Assembly (NCBI GenBank): GCA_904501775.1
Contig: CAJGCJ010000001.1
Location: 1-55,441, forward strand
Length of the DNA: 55,441 nt
Direction of reading: 5' to 3'
Source: an uncultured Bacteroidaceae bacterium
Lineage (GTDB): Bacteria; Bacteroidota; Bacteroidia; Bacteroidales; Bacteroidaceae
Under the pieces are notes generated by a model. The model saw only the letters and a program-made list of their open reading frames with translations, was not told where the DNA came from and did not search any database. Of this stretch, positions 19,111 through 31,063 are shown in pieces; positions within the stretch are counted from its first letter, which is position 1; each line of letters begins with the position of its first letter. A program made the position numbers and the translations under genes.

Positions 19111-19128
19111 ATTTCAGCCGGCTGAAAT
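19111..19128 (-). terminator. Hairpin abutting the murF-alr stop codon
   Basis: Perfect palindrome atttcagccggctgaaat. Weak U tract on the minus strand. Confidence 0.35.
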
Positions 19129-21608
19129 CAATCGCTGAAATAGACCCTTTTTATTCTATTTGACACCGATGTCAGAATCTCGTAGGGGATTGTATCTATC
19201 CACTCGGCAAGGAGTTCTACCGACAATTGGTTTCCGAATATCTCGACCTCGTCACCCTCTTTGCAGTCGATTTCAGTGACATCGACCATGCAGACATCCA
19301 TACAGATATTGCCGATGTAGGGAGCCTTTTGGCCTGCTATCATACAATATCCCCTGCCGTTGCCAAAACGGCGGTTAAGTCCGTCGGCATATCCGATAGG
19401 AAGCGCCGCAATGCGCGACTTACGCCCAAGTGTTCCGCGACGGCTGTAGCCTACAGTCTCATCTGCCGGCACCTCGTGTATCTGCAATATTATAGTCTTC
19501 AATGTAGATATGGGATGCAGTGACGCATCGTGTCCCATAGGAGAGACTCCATAGAGACCTATTCCCAATCGCACCATGTCGCATTGTCTGTCAACGAAAC
19601 GCTCGGCTGCCGCACTATTGCATATATGACAGAGGATATGATGGGGGAACGACCCTTGCAGCAGATCGGCTGCCTGTTTGAAACGGCGCATCTGCTCGGC
19701 CGAGAAATCATCGAACTGTTCGCTGTCGCTACCCGCAAAATGTGAGAATACCGAACGTGGAGTAAGTGCATGCTGACGTTTCAGTTCATCAATAAGTTGC
19801 GGAATTTCGTGGGGAAGGAATCCCAGACGGTGCATACCTGTATCAATCTTTATATGAACAGGATAATCGGTTATTCCCTCGCGGCCTGCTGCCTGTATGA
19901 GCATACGCAACATACCGAAGCTATAGACCTCGGGCTCGAGTTTATTGGCAAAGAGTGTGGGAAAAGAGCTCGGCTCGGGATTCATCACTATTATGCCGGT
20001 AGTAATACCCTCGCGGCGCAACTCGGCACCCTCATCGGCAACCGCAACGGCAAGATAGTCGACATTGCACTCCTGCAAAGTACGTGCAACCTCAAGAGCA
20101 CCTGCACCATAAGCCGAAGCCTTGACCATACATACCGTTTTCACTCCGCTTTTAAGATTGCTGCGATAGTGGTTAAGATTGTCGCGTAACGCACTGAGGT
20201 TCACTTCGAGTATTGTCTGGTGTACCTTCTTTTCAAGAGCCTCGGCAATCTCCTCGAAATGGAGCGAGCGCGAGCCTTTTATCAATATCGCCTCTTTGTC
20301 AAATGTATCGATGAGGCCCGAGCGCATAAAGGATGCAGTATCGGGGAAGAAGGATGTCTCTATTCCCAATTTCGAGAAACGGCTCTTTTCACTGCTTATA
20401 TCAGTACCTATTCCTATGAGCCTGTCGATACTGCGCTTTCCTATATATTGGGCAACAACACGGTATAACGAACGCGGCGACTGGCCGGTCTGTTTTATAT
20501 CGCCAAGGATAAGGGTATGCTTCAGATGTGGCATTGTAACGCATCGGCGTTCAAGGAAGTCGAGCGCTATGTCGAGCGATGCGATATCCGAATTGTAGCT
20601 GTCGTTAATGAGCATACAGCCGTTCTTGCCCTCTTTGACCTCCAAACGCATTGCAACAGGCTCGAGCTGTTCCATACGCTCGGCTATCACATCGGGCGAC
20701 ACCATCAGATAAAGAGCTGCAGCAAGGCAGTTTATCGAATCTTCGATAGACGCATCGTCGAGGAAAGGTATACTGTAGCTGTTCTCAAAAGAGAGGTAGC
20801 GGTATCTTATTGTAGTGCTTGCTTCGTCTTTTTCTATTGAACATATGTAGAGCGGACGCTCGGCATCGACCTTTGACCAAGCAATCTCGCGCGAGCCCAA
20901 CATTGCCCTGTTGACGCTGTTTGCAAGTATCGGATTATCTCCATTGTATATAAGCACATCGCAGTTCTTGAAGAGCTGCAATTTCTCGTCACACTTCTCT
21001 TGCAGCGAGTTGAAATTCTCTTGATGGGCATTGCTTATATTGGTAAGAATACCTATGGTGGGTGATATTATGCTCTGCAACCTGTTCATCTCACCGAGCT
21101 GTGATATTCCAGCCTCAAAGATACCGAGCTCGGTATCTTCACCAAGCATCCACACCGACAAGGGCACTCCTATTTGCGAGTTGTAGCTGCGCGGTGAACG
21201 GGTGACGTGATATTTGGCAGCTGTGAGATGATAAAGCCACTCCTTAACAATGGTTTTTCCGTCGCTGCCCGTAATGCCCACAACCGGAATATCAAACAGC
21301 TGACGGTGAGCAGCTGCCAGATGCTGCAATGCTGATACAGTATCGGGCACCTCAATAAAGTTGGCTTCGGGGAATTTTTCCATGCCCTCGCAGTTGCTGA
21401 CCACGAAATTACGCACACCCCTGTCGTAGAGCACCTGTATATATTTGTGCCCGTCGCCGAACTTTGTCACTATGGCAAAGAAGAGTGTCTCCTCGGGAAA
21501 TGTCAGTGAACGGCTGTCGGTCAACAGACGGGTGACACTGCTATGGGGCGAAGAGCCATGCAAGGGTGCTTTCAATATTTCAGCTATACTGCCAACTGTG
21601 TATTGCAT
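19128..21608 (-). CDS. Bifunctional UDP-N-acetylmuramoyl-tripeptide--D-alanyl-D-alanine ligase / alanine racemase (MurF-Alr fusion)
   Basis: The N-terminal Mur ligase has the GITGSDGKT P-loop. The C-terminal ~370 aa is an alanine racemase (VKASAYGAG PLP-Lys region, ..YADGL..). 826 aa. Confidence 0.9.
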   Translation of the reverse strand: MQYTVGSIAEILKAPLHGSSPHSSVTRLLTDSRSLTFPEETLFFAIVTKFGDGHKYIQVLYDRGVRNFVVSNCEGMEKFPEANFIEVPDTVSALQHLAAAHRQLFDIPVVGITGSDGKTIVKEWLYHLTAAKYHVTRSPRSYNSQIGVPLSVWMLGEDTELGIFEAGISQLGEMNRLQSIISPTIGILTNISNAHQENFNSLQEKCDEKLQLFKNCDVLIYNGDNPILANSVNRAMLGSREIAWSKVDAERPLYICSIEKDEASTTIRYRYLSFENSYSIPFLDDASIEDSINCLAAALYLMVSPDVIAERMEQLEPVAMRLEVKEGKNGCMLINDSYNSDIASLDIALDFLERRCVTMPHLKHTLILGDIKQTGQSPRSLYRVVAQYIGKRSIDRLIGIGTDISSEKSRFSKLGIETSFFPDTASFMRSGLIDTFDKEAILIKGSRSLHFEEIAEALEKKVHQTILEVNLSALRDNLNHYRSNLKSGVKTVCMVKASAYGAGALEVARTLQECNVDYLAVAVADEGAELRREGITTGIIVMNPEPSSFPTLFANKLEPEVYSFGMLRMLIQAAGREGITDYPVHIKIDTGMHRLGFLPHEIPQLIDELKRQHALTPRSVFSHFAGSDSEQFDDFSAEQMRRFKQAADLLQGSFPHHILCHICNSAAAERFVDRQCDMVRLGIGLYGVSPMGHDASLHPISTLKTIILQIHEVPADETVGYSRRGTLGRKSRIAALPIGYADGLNRRFGNGRGYCMIAGQKAPYIGNICMDVCMVDVTEIDCKEGDEVEIFGNQLSVELLAEWIDTIPYEILTSVSNRIKRVYFSD

Positions 21609-24592: not shown

Positions 24593-25930
24593 ATGAAGAT
24601 TGTGATTGTCGGTGCAGGCGCCGTAGGTACACACCTTGCCAAGATGCTCTCAGAAGAGAACGAGAACGTAGTGCTCATGGACGAGCACGAAGAGAGACTG
24701 GGTAAAATGGAGTCGTTGTTCGACCTTAAAGCAATGGTAGGACAACCCACACGCATAAGCGACCTTGAGGCTGCCGGAGTTGAGGGCAGCGACCTCTTCG
24801 TTGCTGTTACGCCCGATGAGAGTTCCAATATAACAGCGTGTATATTGGCCCACTACTTGGGTGCAAAAAAAACCATTGCACGTATCGACAATTACGAATA
24901 TCTTCTGCCCAAGAACAAGGCCTACTTTGAGTCACTCGGAGTAAACTCGCTCATATACCCCGAACAACTTGCTGCAGAAGAGATTGCCACAAGCATAAAA
25001 TATAGCTGGATGAGACAGTTGCTCGAGTTCGGCAACGGTGCACTGGTGATGATTGGAGTAAAGGTAAGGTCTAATTCTTCAATAGTAAATATCCCTTTCA
25101 AGGAGTTATCGCGCGATATCCCTTATCATGTAGTTGCACTGCAGCGAGGCGACATCACCATAATACCTCGAGGAAACGATGTCATTGAGGCCGACGACCT
25201 TGTCTGCTTCATGACCACAAAAGACAAAATCCCATATGTGCGCAACATCTGCGGAAAAGAGAACTATACCGAGGTAAGAAGCATCATAATGATGGGAGGC
25301 GGACGCATAGCTGTGCGTACAGCCAACCTCATATCAAACAAGGTACATGTCAAGATAATAGAGAGTGACATGAAACGCTGCCGACGACTTGTAGAACTTG
25401 TCGACGACAGTATTATGATTATAAACGGTGATGCGCGCGACCCCGAGCTGCTTGTTAGCGAGGGAATACACGACACCGACGCTTTCATTGCACTTGGAGA
25501 CAACTCGGAGACAAACATTCTGGCATGCCTCTCGGCAAAACGTGCCGGAGTGAAGCGGACAGTTGCCGAAATTGAGAACATCGACTACATTTCCATGGCC
25601 GAGAACATGGATATAGGCTCGGTGATAAACAAGAAGAAGCTTGCGGCAAGCAACATCTTCCAGATGATGCTGAAGACCGATGTATCGAGCGTCAAATGCC
25701 TCACCTTCATTCAGGCTGTGGTTGCCGAGTTCCCCGTACGCGAAGGGGCATACATCACAAGAAAGCCGGTCAAGGACCTTGGTTTGCCGAGCGGAGCCAA
25801 CATCGGTGGTCTCATACGCAACGGCGAAGGTTTGCGCGTAAGCGGAAACACCATGATACAGGCCGATGACCATGTCATAATATTCTGCCTTGAGCGTGTT
25901 CTCAAGAAACTCGAAAAATACTTCAACTGA
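24593..25930 (+). CDS. trkA: Trk potassium uptake system NAD-binding subunit
   Basis: Two Rossmann/RCK modules (IVGAGAVGTHLA; MMGGGRIAVRTA), 445 aa. Confidence 0.9.
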   Translation: MKIVIVGAGAVGTHLAKMLSEENENVVLMDEHEERLGKMESLFDLKAMVGQPTRISDLEAAGVEGSDLFVAVTPDESSNITACILAHYLGAKKTIARIDNYEYLLPKNKAYFESLGVNSLIYPEQLAAEEIATSIKYSWMRQLLEFGNGALVMIGVKVRSNSSIVNIPFKELSRDIPYHVVALQRGDITIIPRGNDVIEADDLVCFMTTKDKIPYVRNICGKENYTEVRSIIMMGGGRIAVRTANLISNKVHVKIIESDMKRCRRLVELVDDSIMIINGDARDPELLVSEGIHDTDAFIALGDNSETNILACLSAKRAGVKRTVAEIENIDYISMAENMDIGSVINKKKLAASNIFQMMLKTDVSSVKCLTFIQAVVAEFPVREGAYITRKPVKDLGLPSGANIGGLIRNGEGLRVSGNTMIQADDHVIIFCLERVLKKLEKYFN

Positions 25931-27387
25931 TGCTTCACCCAAAGGTAATATGCAGAATTATTGGATTGCTGTTACAGCTCGAGGCCCTGTTCCTCACATG
26001 CAGCATCGGCGTATCGTTATATTATAACGAGGAGAATATCCTAAGTGCATACATATATACAATAGCAGCACTTGTAGGCTGCGGAATATTGCTCACATAC
26101 ATCGGCTACAACAAGGAGCGCAACATATCGCGTAAAGACGGATATATCGTAGTGACACTCTGCTGGATTGTATTTTCGATGTTCGGAGCAATGCCATATT
26201 ACATAAGCGGATACATACCCTCCATAACAGACGCCTTTTTTGAGACAATGGCCGGATTCACCACAACAGGAGCTTCGGTGGTGGCCGATATGGAGATATT
26301 CCCACGCAGCCTCATCTTCTGGCGTATCATGACACAGTGGATAGGTGGATTGGGAATTGTATTCTTCACTGTTGCCGTATTGCCGATATTCGGACTCGGC
26401 GACCTTCATCTCTTCGCTGCCGAAACGATAGGTATTGCCCGCGCCAAGCTGCATCCGAGAATATCGGTAACAGCACGGTGGATTATGACCATCTATGTAT
26501 GTCTCACGCTTATTGAGGCTGTATGTCTCAAGTTCGCAGGAATGGGTTATTTTGACTCTATCTGCCATGCCATGTCTACAATGTCTACCGGCGGCATCTC
26601 TACAAAGACAGGCGGTATCGCATCATTCAACTCGCCTCTTATCGAATATATAATAATCATTTTCATGATTATGGGAGGTACAAGTTTCTCGCTGCTCTAC
26701 CTTGCACTATTCAAAGGCCGCCCAAAAGAGCTGTTCAGGGATGCAGAGTTCAAGACATACATAAGACTGGTATCTTTCTTTACCATTCTTATAGGTATAG
26801 GACTTTATGTAACAGAGAACATGAGCGCTGAGAGTACTTTCCGAACAGCGCTGTTCCAAGTTGTATCGGTAATTACCACAACGGGATTCTCGACCACTGA
26901 CTATTCGCACTGGACCCCTGTACTGTGGTTGTTGCTTAGTGCTGCAATGTTTGTGGGAGCATGCTCGGGCTCTACAACAGGAGCGATGAAGAGCATACGC
27001 GTAGCCATCCTTGGCCGCGTAATGGCAAACGAGTTCAAGCGTATTGTACACCCCAACGCTGTAATTCCCGTAAGAATGGGCGGTAAAGTAATCTCGGAAC
27101 AGGTACAGTCGGCCATAATGGCATTCACACTGCTGTATGTAGGAATGGTTGTTGTGGGAATTTTCGTGAACATGAGTTTCGGACTGAACCTTGTGGATGC
27201 ATACGGTCTTTCACTATCGAGTGTGAGCAATGTAGGTCCGGGACTCGGAAACTACTCTTCGCCCAATGCCATGGCAAGCCTGCCCGATGTGTTGAAGTGG
27301 TTCTACAGCTTGCAGATGCTTGTAGGACGTCTTGAGTTCTTTGCAGTGCTTCTGCTACTGACTCCCGTATTCTGGCGCAAACAGTGA
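25930..27387 (+). CDS. trkH: Trk potassium uptake system membrane subunit
   Basis: Four pore-loop motifs TTTGAS, STGGIS, TTTGFS, SNVGPG. Polytopic. 1-nt overlap with the trkA stop. Confidence 0.9.
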   Translation: MLHPKVICRIIGLLLQLEALFLTCSIGVSLYYNEENILSAYIYTIAALVGCGILLTYIGYNKERNISRKDGYIVVTLCWIVFSMFGAMPYYISGYIPSITDAFFETMAGFTTTGASVVADMEIFPRSLIFWRIMTQWIGGLGIVFFTVAVLPIFGLGDLHLFAAETIGIARAKLHPRISVTARWIMTIYVCLTLIEAVCLKFAGMGYFDSICHAMSTMSTGGISTKTGGIASFNSPLIEYIIIIFMIMGGTSFSLLYLALFKGRPKELFRDAEFKTYIRLVSFFTILIGIGLYVTENMSAESTFRTALFQVVSVITTTGFSTTDYSHWTPVLWLLLSAAMFVGACSGSTTGAMKSIRVAILGRVMANEFKRIVHPNAVIPVRMGGKVISEQVQSAIMAFTLLYVGMVVVGIFVNMSFGLNLVDAYGLSLSSVSNVGPGLGNYSSPNAMASLPDVLKWFYSLQMLVGRLEFFAVLLLLTPVFWRKQ

Positions 27388-27429
27388 TTCTTATAAAAGA
27401 GAGCGAATAGACATTATGGGATATAGCGG

Positions 27430-28431
27430 TCACTGTGACTCTATATAATGCAGCAGACTCTCAATATCCCTCTTCAGCCACTTATATTGCTTCGACTCCT
27501 TGTAATTGGTGTTCTTGTTCAGCATCAATGCCACATCGCATTGACTATGCCTATAGGATGAGAGTTCATTATCCATCTGCTGCTTATGGCATGCCAGACG
27601 TTGGATATCTGTTTCGCGCTTATTGCGCAGATGACGGCATATAGGACCCAGAACACGCAGCACCACACTATTCATTATATGGTGTCCCTGTATATACATG
27701 TATGTATCATCTTCCACTATTCCCAAACGAGAGAGTTCCTCTTTCAGCGCAGTGTAGGCGGGTAACAGGTGAGGGAAGCGTTTCTCAAGCAGCGCAAGTT
27801 CGTGCTCTACCCTCATGGCCAGATGTTTTAGCGAATCCTGAGGCGAAGATATCGTAAATGAGGTTATGCGAACGATATCGCAGAAACGCTGCATGCTCAT
27901 TGTCCTAAGGTCGTTGTTGCGGTAGAGCAATATGTTCCAAAGGAACAGCGGATAAGATATACGTGAGTACAGTTTGAAATAGGCCTCAAAGTCAAGTATA
28001 TCAGAATCGTTCAGAGTGCTTTGCACACAGACACGTTTCAGAGAATCGGCATAGCACTTATAATTCTCTATGGCATAGGCATATGTGTGCAGTATGTATC
28101 TATTGCCGAGCATCTGTCGCGAGGATGATGTCGCACCCTGCATAAGATAGTCGTAGTCGCTGTCGACACAAGCTATCATATTCTTTCCGACACCCTTGCC
28201 CAACATATTCATCATTGCGCTTTTTTTGCCCTTCGTAAGGCTTCTTCGCGTGGGCAGCAGCACTTCGAAATGGAATTTGTCGTTCTCGTACTCATCGAAT
28301 ACCGAGCGCCAAAACGATATGTCATCGTAACTTTCGACGTATGCCACGATGCGCGTCTTTGAGCTCTTGGGTCTTAAAGCATTTGCAGCTGCAAGAAAAC
28401 CCGAATTTATATATTCGGTGAGCCTCTTCAT
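27430..28431 (-). CDS. DUF4435-domain protein (Toprim/OLD-like putative nuclease), AriB/AbiL-component-like
   Basis: IVAYVESYDDISFW (acidic Glu), ACVDSDYDYL (DxD), YAYAIENY. 333 aa, with a C-terminal ~170 aa that I could not assign. Starts 6 nt after the ATPase stop. Confidence 0.65.
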   Translation of the reverse strand: MKRLTEYINSGFLAAANALRPKSSKTRIVAYVESYDDISFWRSVFDEYENDKFHFEVLLPTRRSLTKGKKSAMMNMLGKGVGKNMIACVDSDYDYLMQGATSSSRQMLGNRYILHTYAYAIENYKCYADSLKRVCVQSTLNDSDILDFEAYFKLYSRISYPLFLWNILLYRNNDLRTMSMQRFCDIVRITSFTISSPQDSLKHLAMRVEHELALLEKRFPHLLPAYTALKEELSRLGIVEDDTYMYIQGHHIMNSVVLRVLGPICRHLRNKRETDIQRLACHKQQMDNELSSYRHSQCDVALMLNKNTNYKESKQYKWLKRDIESLLHYIESQ

Positions 28432-28437
28432 GGGCCG

Positions 28438-29265
28438 CTACTCCTTTACTATTTCTGAAATCTCGGTTACCGCATCCATCCATCCGTCCATAATAATTGC
28501 CGGAGAGTGGGTACAGAGTATAATCTGTACATTGGGGTTGAGTGTCCGTATCAGCGAAATAAGACGCTGTTGCCACTCAATGTGCAACGACACCTCGGGC
28601 TCGTCCATAAAGAGGACTGCCGGACGTGACTCCTGAACAAGTGCCGTAAGCAGTATCACAAGCAACTGCTTTTCGCCCGAAGATAGAAGATAGGGGGATA
28701 TGACTTCGCCATATTGACTGAAATAGATTTCGTTACGGTCGCGCAGAATAGTCTTTGCAGTCTGTGCAAACAGTTCATCTATCATATCCTGAAACATCTT
28801 CTTGGGCTTCGTAATCTCGGCAGCCAGACGCTGGTCATCGGCATTGCCCGATGTCAGCAGGGATATTATTCTATTGCCAATATTTACCTGATAATTCAGG
28901 AAACGGCGTTGCAGATTATAGAGTTGCCAGTCGAGTTCGGTGCGTACATCAGCGCCCGATACCCTCGCAAGCGCTTCGCTGTTGATAACAGGCCTGTCGA
29001 CACAGCTTATAACATCGAATGTAATGGTTGTTGCATCCTGCGGATAGAACTCAATGTGTACACCCTCTTGCGGATTGCTTGTAACAATATTGTCGTGCAT
29101 AATCCTCAGATGCGCTGCCGAACGGTTTATTATGGTGCTTTTACCCACTCCGTTGCTTCCGCTGAGAATATTCACATCGGGACGCAGTTCCCAGAAAACA
29201 TGCTTGTGTTTTCCCCACAACGAATCAATCTCGATACTCTTAATATACTGTGCCTGCTTATCCAT
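28438..29265 (-). CDS. Compact ABC/RecF-type ATPase (AAA_21/AAA_15-like), AriA/AbiL-component-like
   Basis: Walker A GSNGVGKST, signature-like LSSGEKQ, Walker B/D-loop VLFMDEPEVSLH, H-loop CTHSP. The track start at 29283 is TTG and lies only 11 nt from the promoter box, so the ATG at 29265 (MDKQAQYIKSIEI) is preferred. Confidence 0.75.
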   Translation of the reverse strand: MDKQAQYIKSIEIDSLWGKHKHVFWELRPDVNILSGSNGVGKSTIINRSAAHLRIMHDNIVTSNPQEGVHIEFYPQDATTITFDVISCVDRPVINSEALARVSGADVRTELDWQLYNLQRRFLNYQVNIGNRIISLLTSGNADDQRLAAEITKPKKMFQDMIDELFAQTAKTILRDRNEIYFSQYGEVISPYLLSSGEKQLLVILLTALVQESRPAVLFMDEPEVSLHIEWQQRLISLIRTLNPNVQIILCTHSPAIIMDGWMDAVTEISEIVKE

Positions 29266-29293
29266 CTTACTTACTGTTTTCAACCGTTATTTG

Positions 29294-29301
29294 CAAAAAT
29301 A
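29294..29301 (-). promoter_or_regulatory. Putative -7 box TATTTTTG for the ATPase/DUF4435 pair
   Basis: Minus-strand TATTTTTG(CAAA), 29 nt upstream of the ATG at 29265. Confidence 0.45.
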
Positions 29302-29385
29302 GCATTTTGTTTCTCTTGCACAAATGAAGAATATTAAATTAATGTGAAAAATTGAGTTTTGATATATAATAATGATTTTTATTCT

Positions 29386-29419: not shown

Positions 29420-31063
29420 ATGATTACTGTATTCTGCAAAAACAACGGAGAGAGCAAGAAATTCGAAGCAGGGGTATCACTTATAGAGGTCTACAACGGA
29501 TTCAATCTGAAGATGACACAAGATGTAGTTGCCGCACTCGTAAACAACGAAGTTACCGGACTCACATTCCGTCTGTACAGGAACAAGGATGTTGAGTTCC
29601 TTGACATAACATCGGATGCCGGAATGAGACTCTATGTGCGTTCGCTGACATTTGTAATGATGAAAGCCATGCACGAACTGTTCCCGGGGCGTACTGTCCG
29701 TTTTGAGAACCCTATCTCAAACGGCTATTACTGCAGGATGGAGACTCAATTGACTGAAAACGAAGTCAACAGCATCCGCGATAGGATGCACACTATCATT
29801 GAGCGCGACATACGTTTCAAAAGGGTGGATTGCCACACATCCGAAGCGATAGAGATTTTCTCGAAGATAGGAAGGAGTGACAAGGTAAAGCTGCTCGAGA
29901 CCTATGACTCGATATACTCAAGCTATTATATGCTCGACGATTATATCGATTACTACTATGGCGGCCTGCTGCCAAGCACAGGATATATAAAGCTGTTCGA
30001 GATTGAGAAATATGGTGAAGGAGTTCTTCTGCGCATCCCCAACCGCGATTGCCCGGCCACTCTCGAGGACAAAGTTGACCAAGAGAAGCTGCAGGAGAGA
30101 TTTACCGAACGTCTGCGCTGGCATCAGATAATGGGAGTTGAGACCATAGGCGATTTCAACAAAGCGGTACAGGCCGGATATGCAATTGACCTTGTCAATG
30201 TATCCGAGGCACTGCAAGAGAAACGCATTGCCTACATTGCCGACGAGATAAAAAGACGTAATTCACGCGTAGTGCTCATAGCAGGCCCCTCATCATCGGG
30301 AAAGACAACAACGAGCAAACGCTTGAGCGTACATCTTATTGCATGCGGCCTTAAACCCTATGCTATATCATTGGACGATTTCTTTCTCAACAGGACCGAC
30401 ACGCCGCTAAAAGAGGATGGAGACTACGATTTTGAGTCGATATATTCAATAGACCTGCCCTATTTCAACGACTCGCTCAACAAGATACTTGCAGGCGAAG
30501 AGGTTATGCTGCCACATTACAATTTTCAACTTGGCGAACGCGAGTTCCTTGGCAACAGGATAAAACTAAATCCACAGATGGTATTGGTTATAGAGGGTAC
30601 ACACGGATTGAACCCCATGCTCACATCCCAGATACCCGAGGACGAGAAATTCAAGATTTATGTGTCGGCACTCACATCAATAAAACTCGATTACCATAAT
30701 AACATAGCAACATCAGATAACCGACTGATAAGGCGCATGCTGCGCGACTACAAATACCGCGGATACTCGGCCGAGGAGACAATAAGACGCTGGCCCGATG
30801 TGCGCGAGGGCGAAGAGAAGTGGATATTCCCCTATCAGGAGAATGCCGATGTAATGTTCAACTCGGCACTGCTCTACGAGCTTGCTGTACTAAAGCCACA
30901 TGTGGAACCGCTGTTGCGCCGTGTGCCACAGAACACTGCAGAATATTCCGTAGCACGTTCCCTTTTGAAAATTCTGGAATATATTGTACCTTTGCAGGAC
31001 AATGAGTTACCGCCAACATCTGTTATACGCGAATTCCTTGGTGGCAGCAGTTTCACCTATTAA
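29420..31063 (+). CDS. Nucleoside (uridine-type) kinase fused to an N-terminal TGS/ThrRS-like domain
   Basis: P-loop GPSSSGKTTTSKRL with a phosphoribulokinase/uridine-kinase-like core. The N-terminal ~230 aa contain a ubiquitin-like TGS segment (ITVFCKNNGESKKFEAGVSLIEV). Confidence 0.75.
   Translation: MITVFCKNNGESKKFEAGVSLIEVYNGFNLKMTQDVVAALVNNEVTGLTFRLYRNKDVEFLDITSDAGMRLYVRSLTFVMMKAMHELFPGRTVRFENPISNGYYCRMETQLTENEVNSIRDRMHTIIERDIRFKRVDCHTSEAIEIFSKIGRSDKVKLLETYDSIYSSYYMLDDYIDYYYGGLLPSTGYIKLFEIEKYGEGVLLRIPNRDCPATLEDKVDQEKLQERFTERLRWHQIMGVETIGDFNKAVQAGYAIDLVNVSEALQEKRIAYIADEIKRRNSRVVLIAGPSSSGKTTTSKRLSVHLIACGLKPYAISLDDFFLNRTDTPLKEDGDYDFESIYSIDLPYFNDSLNKILAGEEVMLPHYNFQLGEREFLGNRIKLNPQMVLVIEGTHGLNPMLTSQIPEDEKFKIYVSALTSIKLDYHNNIATSDNRLIRRMLRDYKYRGYSAEETIRRWPDVREGEEKWIFPYQENADVMFNSALLYELAVLKPHVEPLLRRVPQNTAEYSVARSLLKILEYIVPLQDNELPPTSVIREFLGGSSFTY

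Follow-up and report, generated by a model that had tools for sequence, protein, structure and literature searches.

A compact PARIS-family ATPase and DUF4435 gene pair, most likely an ATP-gated Toprim nuclease, conserved like a core operon in Bacteroidaceae

The stretch of DNA analysed here, referred to throughout as the window, comprises 55,441 nucleotides (nt) from an uncultured Bacteroidaceae bacterium (GenBank assembly GCA_904501775.1, contig CAJGCJ010000001.1, forward strand). Two adjacent minus-strand genes, lying between trkH and a TGS/uridine-kinase-like gene, encode an ABC ATPase of 275 amino acids (aa) and a DUF4435/Toprim protein of 333 aa. The two proteins belong to the family of PARIS, a defence system that was solved recently and is known from enterobacterial mobile elements. 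The pair is most likely an anciently fixed, ATP-gated Toprim nuclease of this family, for which an immune and a domesticated cellular role are both considered below. The features of the locus are as follows (pLDDT, predicted local distance difference test score):

28438-29265, minus strand: ABC ATPase gene, 275 aa from the ATG at 29265
29134-29160, minus strand: Walker A motif GSNGVGKST, aa 36-44, read as a motif
28759-28938, minus strand: short helical hairpin, aa 110-169, predicted by AlphaFold2, the sole insertion between the halves of the nucleotide-binding domain
28666-28686, minus strand: signature motif LSSGEKQ, aa 194-200, read as a motif
28582-28617, minus strand: Walker B/D-loop VLFMDEPEVSLH, aa 217-228, read as a motif
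28501-28515, minus strand: H-loop CTHSP, aa 251-255, read as a motif
28432-28437, minus strand: intergenic spacer CGGCCC, 6 nt from the ATPase stop TAG to the DUF4435 ATG
27430-28431, minus strand: DUF4435/Toprim gene, 333 aa
28039-28353, minus strand: Toprim core, aa 27-131, by DUF4435 match and hhalign
28333-28335, 28321-28323, 28156-28164 and 28066-28068, minus strand: acidic residues E33, D37, D90/D92 and E122
27433-27624, minus strand: C-terminal helical tail, aa 270-333, beyond the Pfam model, conserved and predicted helical (pLDDT 68-93)
29294-29324, minus strand: putative Bacteroides-type promoter, with -33 TTTG at 29321-29324, a 19-nt spacer and -7 TATTTTTG at 29294-29301
27388-27429, no strand: spacer of 42 nt between the convergent stops of trkH and the DUF4435 gene
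25930-27387, plus strand: trkH, convergent with the DUF4435 gene
29420-31063, plus strand: TGS/uridine-kinase-like gene, divergent from the ATPase gene

The locus reads as a two-gene operon, coding for an AriA-like ATPase that consists of a nucleotide-binding core and a short helical hairpin, and for a predicted AriB-like metal-dependent nuclease. A preceding reading of the same DNA, made without database searches and called here the sequence-only reading, had described two co-directional genes 6 nt apart with their own TATTTTTG box, a 42-nt convergent spacer to trkH and a divergent kinase gene; sequence and coordinates confirm each of these. The 6-nt spacing fits an operon. Across 79 related loci, the two genes are always separate open reading frames (ORFs; 79/79), with a median gap of 23 nt that is at most 60 nt in 65 of the 79, and they adjoin in every locus whose contig reaches far enough. 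An alternative upstream TTG at 29283 would yield an ATPase of 281 aa; the ATG at 29265 is favoured because homologues have 274-275 aa. Read directly from the sequence, the TATTTTTG box ends 28 nt upstream of this ATG. The consensus of Bacteroides promoters is TTTG at -33 and TAnnTTTG at -7, and 75 of 81 related loci have a TAnnTTTG box in the 120 nt preceding the ATPase gene, versus 4.8% of random 120-nt windows. The pair would be co-transcribed from a conserved putative promoter. A sigma-70 promoter and terminator scan gave counts at shuffle level, sigma-70 being the wrong promoter type for Bacteroidota, and the terminator scan found no convincing intrinsic terminator in the 42-nt spacer.

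The ATPase matches the Pfam models AAA_21 (66.1 bits, E = 7.2e-18) and AAA_15 (63.7 bits, 3.1e-17), as well as RecF/RecN/SMC_N (42.2 bits, threshold 40), with SMC_N-like similarity extending across aa 8-260. Its top PADLOC match is the AriA model PDLC04164 (4.5e-55), aligned in a single stretch, aa 5-273 on model positions 3-251 of 253. The motifs quoted for both proteins in the sequence-only reading are all present in the translations, as is the distance of some 150 aa between Walker A and the signature, which is 150 aa. Across 84 ATPase sequences, no variation occurs in the Walker A, signature, Walker B and H-loop motifs. The AlphaFold2 model of the whole ATPase is poor (pLDDT 61, aa 1-85 below 50), and use was limited to the helical segment predicted with confidence and to the order of its fold matches. 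This segment, aa 110-200, reaches pLDDT 85-93, with helices at aa 110-137, 142-151 and 153-169; the top PDB fold matches are AriA chains, followed by PtuA. The base of the hairpin (aa 111-130) is among the best conserved parts of the protein (entropy 0.37-0.40 bits); the most variable stretches are aa 51-80 and 141-160. At 50% identity, 302 clusters match the ATPase with E <= 1e-30, and lengths among the matches listed are mostly 270-350 aa. Longer homologues occur, namely P0243 (476 aa), P0391 (390 aa) and P0490 (418 aa), the last combining an MscS-channel Pfam match with the ATPase; they are probably gene-calling fusions with neighbours and not real architectures.

The partner protein matches Pfam DUF4435 over aa 27-269 (E = 2.3e-48, 165.5 bits, cut-off 27), and its PADLOC matches are to AriB models only (PDLC02983, 1.4e-56; PDLC04165, 1e-33). 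It carries the motifs IVAYVESYDD, ACVDSDYDY and YAIENY. Among 79 sequences, E33, D37, D90, D92 and D94 never vary, and at least 90% have E122. Since the Pfam match extends to aa 269, the unassigned C-terminal region shrinks from the roughly 170 aa first supposed to about 64 aa (270-333), within which E273, I276, H282, Q285, N288, E289 and Y293 are invariant in the same 79 sequences. The AlphaFold2 model has pLDDT 75, but 50-69 across most of the Toprim core. A search of NCBIfam found no equivalog model for either protein.

PARIS is detected by a published rule that combines AAA_15 at >= 32 bits or AAA_21 at >= 27 bits with an adjacent DUF4435 at >= 27 bits (Rousset 2022, PMC9122126). With 63.7, 66.1 and 165.5 bits, respectively, and genes 6 nt apart, the pair is PARIS by this rule. 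The proposed architecture of a PARIS-type ABC ATPase with a DUF4435/Toprim protein therefore holds, as Pfam, the published rule and the PADLOC AriA and AriB models all match.

Conservation across genomes is the unexpected part of the picture. Loci were collected via the ATPase itself, and the counts that follow are counts of carriers, with no denominator of genomes lacking the pair. A scan of one genome per GTDB species, with the ATPase as query, shows that at least 585 species encode a relative. The best 80 of these are metagenome-assembled genomes (MAGs) of Bacteroidaceae together with Phocaeicola, Bacteroides, Paraprevotella, Prevotella, Prevotellamassilia and Alloprevotella, at 56-83% identity. 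A third homologue search with cluster look-up places Bacteroides nordii, Jilunia and common gut Bacteroides among the carriers. Two entries have doubtful labels: protein P0494 is 'Oscillospiraceae bacterium N12' in NCBI and Jilunia laotingensis in UniRef, and locus L051 (JAMPGY010000014.1) comes from a MAG titled 'Clostridium sp.', has the pair by trkA-dxs-GSCFA with Paraprevotella-like identity, and is probably mis-binned or mislabelled.

Gene order is likewise retained. The complete order TGS-kinase / ATPase / DUF4435 / trkH / trkA / dxs is found in 33 of the 39 closest loci, and four more end at a contig edge. Paraprevotella, some Prevotella and Bacteroides sp. also have the pair beside trkA-dxs-GSCFA, and GSCFA stands beside dxs in the window too. 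An EamA/DMT transporter gene is the divergent upstream neighbour of the ATPase gene in at least 24 loci of Bacteroides, Phocaeicola, Paraprevotella and Prevotella (within L040-L083, L101 and L102; e.g. L076:6994-7953, minus strand), and in the window's clade the TGS/uridine-kinase-like gene takes its place. Loci L081 and L101 have the pair flanked by the EamA gene and by MscS. All neighbours examined are housekeeping genes, encoding CysS, MurF-Alr, M28 and M23 peptidases, MscS, MeaB, HAD and others. Only one possible truncation of the pair occurs among 74 loci with a long enough contig. The pair had been thought to interrupt an otherwise housekeeping stretch; the order shared by the closest loci, the partial synteny across genera, and core-like divergence and dN/dS (ratio of nonsynonymous, dN, to synonymous, dS, substitution rates) speak against this. 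The sequence-only reading had also taken core-like conservation of position across genomes as contrary to its view, and the data come close to a core-gene pattern.

Evolutionary rates at the locus were compared across six genes. The p-distances are mean pairwise values over 43 loci, and dN/dS and dN are medians:

ATPase: p-distance 0.254, dN/dS 0.063, dN 0.108
DUF4435: p-distance 0.356, dN/dS 0.087, dN 0.200
dxs: p-distance 0.269, dN/dS 0.059, dN 0.167
trkA: p-distance 0.294, dN/dS 0.073, dN 0.141
trkH: dN/dS 0.093, dN 0.213
TGS-kinase: dN/dS 0.068, dN 0.193

Among these genes dN is lowest in the ATPase, and the dN/dS of the pair (0.063 and 0.087) lies within the range of the flanking genes (0.059-0.093). 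Linked genes share history through linkage, and with this caveat the distances of ATPase and DUF4435 correlate with those of dxs and trkA at r = 0.93-0.97 (Mantel p = 0.001; 0.93-0.95, p = 0.001, against dxs alone), dxs with trkA at 0.94, and the matrices of ATPase and DUF4435 with each other at r = 0.97. Both proteins are intact with conserved catalytic motifs, and the pair is co-evolving. Its vertical inheritance at this place in the chromosome predates the divergence of the Bacteroidaceae genera, and the purifying selection on it is as strong as that on dxs and trkA.

Mobile elements hold no close copy of the pair in the collections searched. Matches in the phage collection are all distant or partial, neither protein has a close relative in IMG/VR, no PHROG family corresponds to the DUF4435 protein, and the plasmid search with PLSDB records finds no close copy on true plasmids. 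Two close 'plasmid' matches were rejected: L081 (NZ_OY725943.1, 'plasmid 41', Bacteroides finegoldii) and L083 (OY726067.1, 'plasmid: 93', Phocaeicola massiliensis) are read as mislabelled chromosomal contigs because their neighbours are housekeeping genes.

The solved PARIS system of the Escherichia coli B185 P4-like satellite (8UX9, 8V45-8V49) has the same arrangement of adjacent ABC ATPase and DUF4435/Toprim genes. Of the window ATPase, only residues 8-48 and 193-270 align to AriA (6-45 and 365-440), and 8ux9 and 8v45 are matched at 1e-15 over aa 193-270. This segment, with the signature, Walker B, D-loop and H-loop, includes SLHI(D/E)WQ, the site of the AriB-docking residue D401, which corresponds to E230 of the window protein and is invariant in the close-relative alignment A1. 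In the nuclease, E33/D37/D90/D92/E122 are spaced as are the acidic residues E26/D30/D88/E90/E122 of AriB (Burman et al., PMC11464382).

Other properties separate the two. As the sequence-only reading had noted, the ATPase is far shorter than AriA (275 versus 464 aa), with about 175 aa fewer between Walker A and signature. The window pair is chromosomal, syntenic and core-like and does not sit on satellites, prophages or islands. The PARIS family is typically patchy, being carried on prophages, satellites or defence islands, a trait that is characteristic and not strictly defining. The AriA trigger pores are poorly conserved (PMC11464382), whereas the window ATPase evolves slowly. Two insertions of AriA within this Walker A-signature interval have known roles: IS1 (122-180) in trigger recognition, and IS2 (242-289), an extended coiled coil, in hexamer assembly (PMC11464382). 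According to the structural model, the hairpin of the window ATPase would stand in for the long coiled coil of AriA and for IS1/IS2.

Mobile relatives show how little the window ATPase adds to this core. A pair in the variable hotspot of a P2-like phage, between tail genes (Escherichia phage vB_EcoM-813R9, ON470620; L087), shares 42% identity over the 93 C-terminal aa of the ATPase (hhalign 99.3%), its DUF4435 Toprim core aligns over aa 27-131 (hhalign probability 92%), and the PADLOC AriA and AriB models match both pairs. The phage ATPase, however, has 419 aa and is matched by PDLC04164 in two stretches around an insertion; because the window ATPase is matched end to end, it can be read as the conserved AriA core with almost nothing added. 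ColE1/Rop-type plasmids of Klebsiella pneumoniae (NZ_CP141665.1, 4416 bp; CP084858, CP071258, LR890247) carry little besides an ATPase and a DUF4435 gene. In the 4.4-kb NZ_CP141665 (L082), a 325-aa ATPase aligns over its full length with 27% identity at aa 8-275 and is followed by an overlapping DUF4435 gene (325 aa), the top PADLOC matches being PDLC04164 and PDLC04165; the plasmid ATPase also has a weak PADLOC match to AbiLi. These pairs differ from the window in their low identity (20-27%) and in their small-plasmid location, typical of mobile defence or addiction cargo. Such compact plasmid pairs indicate that the PARIS-like family has classic mobile forms.

More distant systems share one or the other component. 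OLD, Gabija GajA and retron/Septu PtuA have ATPases of the same AAA_15/AAA_21 ABC class and give weaker PADLOC, PDB and fold matches. OLD and GajA also have a Toprim nuclease, but fused to the ATPase in one polypeptide, PtuA has an HNH nuclease as its partner, and none of the nuclease models of these systems is matched by the window DUF4435 protein. A likeness to AbiL, suggested from the sequence alone, is not borne out in PADLOC, where the DUF4435 protein has no AbiLii match at E <= 1 and AbiLi is absent from the 25 best ATPase matches. RecF and RecR form a housekeeping partnership of an SMC/ABC-type ATPase with a Toprim-domain protein. The likeness is one of analogy, its homology tested only through Pfam SMC_N, whose threshold the ATPase passes; RecR differs in its helix-hairpin-helix and zinc-finger domains and is not known to act as a nuclease, and NCBIfam gives no specific similarity to RecF or RecR.

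By homology to PARIS (PMC11464382), an ATP-sandwich dimer of the ATPase would bind the N-terminal region of the nuclease above the ATP sites and keep it inactive. A cue would bring about ATP-dependent release or activation of the nuclease, which would then cut nucleic acid. Like AriB, it would most likely target the anticodon loops of tRNA, and translation and growth would be arrested. Since the ATPase has none of the AriA insertions and the base of its hairpin is conserved, an assembly based on dimers and not on a hexamer is expected. The missing trigger-binding and hexamer insertions, together with very slow evolution, suggest a conserved cue; a guarded host component, or a general signal of infection or stress, would be more likely in this role than a phage protein that evolves fast. 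Among the possible roles, that of a chromosomally fixed innate surveillance or abortive-infection module, as opposed to a mobile defence island, is tentatively preferred, with a probability a little short of even.

Several observations weigh against this reading. Docking of AriA to AriB involves salt bridges of AriA D401 and E404 with AriB R28 and R31 (PMC11464382). In the window proteins, E404 corresponds to Q233, and R28 and R31 to Y35 and I38, two and five residues beyond the catalytic Glu; the likeness of the putative docking surface to that of AriA is therefore partial. Between the aligned segments, the window ATPase has 145 aa compared with about 320 aa in AriA, leaving no room for both IS1 and IS2, and the assembly and sensing of PARIS are therefore not directly transferable. 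The DUF4435 protein matches neither the solved AriB nor any other PDB chain (phmmer; 31-sequence profile), and its AlphaFold2 model has no significant Foldseek match in PDB or BFVD. These failures are not read against homology, in view of the strong matches to Pfam and PADLOC models and of the successful hhalign comparison with the phage DUF4435 protein, but they confine the link with the experimentally studied AriB to the level of Pfam and PADLOC families. The choice of substrate, whether tRNA or DNA, would be pure analogy, and the compact forms of the pair are known from sequences alone. No integrase, transposase or second defence gene lies beside the pair in the loci examined. Core-like conservation, slow evolution and the lack of a defence-island or mobile context are unusual for anti-phage systems and fit a housekeeping role equally well.

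That role is the strongest competitor, though it appears less probable than immunity. The pair could be a domesticated or ancestral housekeeping enzyme acting in RNA, tRNA or rRNA processing or quality control, or in DNA repair and recombination, in which case the 'PARIS' label would be a family-level false positive produced by the rules of defence-detection tools. The breadth of carriers (at least 585 species across several genera), the dxs/trkA/trkH/GSCFA and EamA synteny kept across genera, the uniformly housekeeping neighbours, the lowest dN in the ATPase, dN/dS of 0.06-0.09 and divergence in step with core genes all agree with such a role. So do the absence of a PHROG match for DUF4435 and of close phage, plasmid or IMG/VR copies, and the partly excellent conservation of the ATPase region that corresponds by position to the AriA trigger pores (aa 111-130). 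Housekeeping analogues exist in RecF-RecR, which pairs an ABC-ATPase with a Toprim protein, and in RNase M5, a Toprim RNase. On the other hand, the characterised relatives, PARIS, OLD, Gabija and Septu/retron PtuA, are all defence effectors, and we know of no housekeeping function for any DUF4435 protein or AAA_15/AAA_21 ATPase. The carrier counts, taken from ATPase-collected loci without a denominator, the relative L084 with other genes after trkH, and the want of an NCBIfam equivalog model for both proteins also count against it. That the pair is not immune at all, being either a conserved Bacteroidaceae housekeeping nuclease or a cellular ancestor of mobile PARIS to which trigger-sensing insertions were added later, is judged rather unlikely.

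A split, two-gene system resembling OLD or Gabija, whose ATPase senses DNA ends or nucleotide levels and whose Toprim protein acts not on tRNA but on DNA, nicking or degrading it in foreign molecules or at stalled replication intermediates, is improbable. OLD, GajA and retron I-B effectors do pair the same ATPase class with Toprim, the ATPase matches their PADLOC models and has SMC_N/RecF-like similarity over aa 8-260, and a superfamily 1 (SF1) helicase encoded close by in 13 loci is reminiscent of OLD class 2 and Gabija, which have helicase partners. Yet the PADLOC matches of the DUF4435 protein are to AriB and not to Toprim_OLD or GajA, the C-terminal half of the ATPase is closest to AriA, and the helicase is divergent, often beyond the EamA gene, and absent from the window and its clade. 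A selfish addiction module, akin to a toxin-antitoxin pair and kept although the host gains nothing from it, is highly improbable. A gated toxin is plausible because AriA is described as the antitoxin of AriB in PDB entries 8v45-8v49, but the position kept across genera at 57-83% identity, dN/dS of 0.06-0.09 in both genes and a single possible truncation in 74 loci do not suit selfish persistence. The least credible account, and largely refuted, is the original one of a horizontally acquired defence or abortive-infection cassette that landed between housekeeping operons. Its own putative promoter, its convergence with trkH and divergence from the kinase gene, and the mobile family members on small plasmids and in P2-phage hotspots would suit such a cassette; the identical arrangement in 33 of the 39 closest loci, divergence congruent with dxs and trkA, the absence of integrase, transposase or other defence genes beside the pair in the loci examined, and the chromosomal nature of 'plasmids' 41 and 93 do not.

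Some observations on the surroundings complete the description. A trkH-anchored metagenome scan returned three loci only, one with the pair, one with trkH beside other genes (L084) and one distant. In L084 (2363-4843), trkH is followed by CAAX protease, RibF and HAD genes, and in L007 (9883-16203) and L030 the kinase-ATPase-DUF4435 block is kept with other genes after it; L084 represents either loss of the pair or the same breakpoint as in L007 and L030. The breakpoint of the trkH-pair linkage in close relatives falls exactly at the 42-nt convergent spacer. In other genera, the first or second gene upstream of the pair encodes a divergently transcribed SF1 helicase (605-800 aa, AAA_11 + AAA_12) in 13 loci, which are:

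L046-L051, L055, L056, L058, L060, L070, L075 and L077 (e.g. L048:5089-6918, minus strand): SF1 helicase gene

A functional link to this helicase was set aside because of its opposite strand, the EamA gene often in between, and its absence from the window and its clade. The 547-aa kinase-like product (29420-31063) has only a PRK/uridine-kinase domain match in Pfam, at aa 285-482, and its N-terminal 280 aa, called TGS-like in the sequence-only reading, have no Pfam match at 1e-5. At 19128-21608 of the window, on the minus strand, an 826-aa ORF joins a Mur-ligase middle domain to a complete alanine racemase, a fusion of MurF-Alr type.

The architecture of the pair is not new, since it is PARIS by the published rule and by PADLOC, and shortness alone is not unique in view of the compact Klebsiella pairs and the 302 clusters. 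Of the earlier suggestion of an undescribed subtype, one part falls, as existing tools would already label the pair PARIS, and another stands, as no compact, core-conserved form has been characterised in the literature searched: it describes no compact pair of the PARIS family that is fixed across Bacteroidaceae in the manner of a core operon, and nothing relevant turned up on PARIS or DUF4435 in Bacteroides or Prevotella. There is nothing unusual in the homology; what was not expected is the pattern of conservation, which is testable and relevant to counting defence systems in gut Bacteroidota. Annotation by DefenseFinder or PADLOC rules would count 'PARIS' in hundreds of Bacteroides and Prevotella species, and if the pair is not immune, defensome statistics would be inflated or distorted. 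The 275-aa ATPase, near the smallest AriA-like gate and free of hexamer and trigger-pore insertions, may offer a tractable model for the restraint of Toprim nucleases by ABC ATPases. A minimal version of PARIS thus appears to be chromosomally fixed, and conserved like dxs and trkA, in a dominant family of animal-gut bacteria. If it is immune, it would be a rare case in which an effector of abortive-infection type has stayed a core gene through deep time, and a conserved trigger would be implied.

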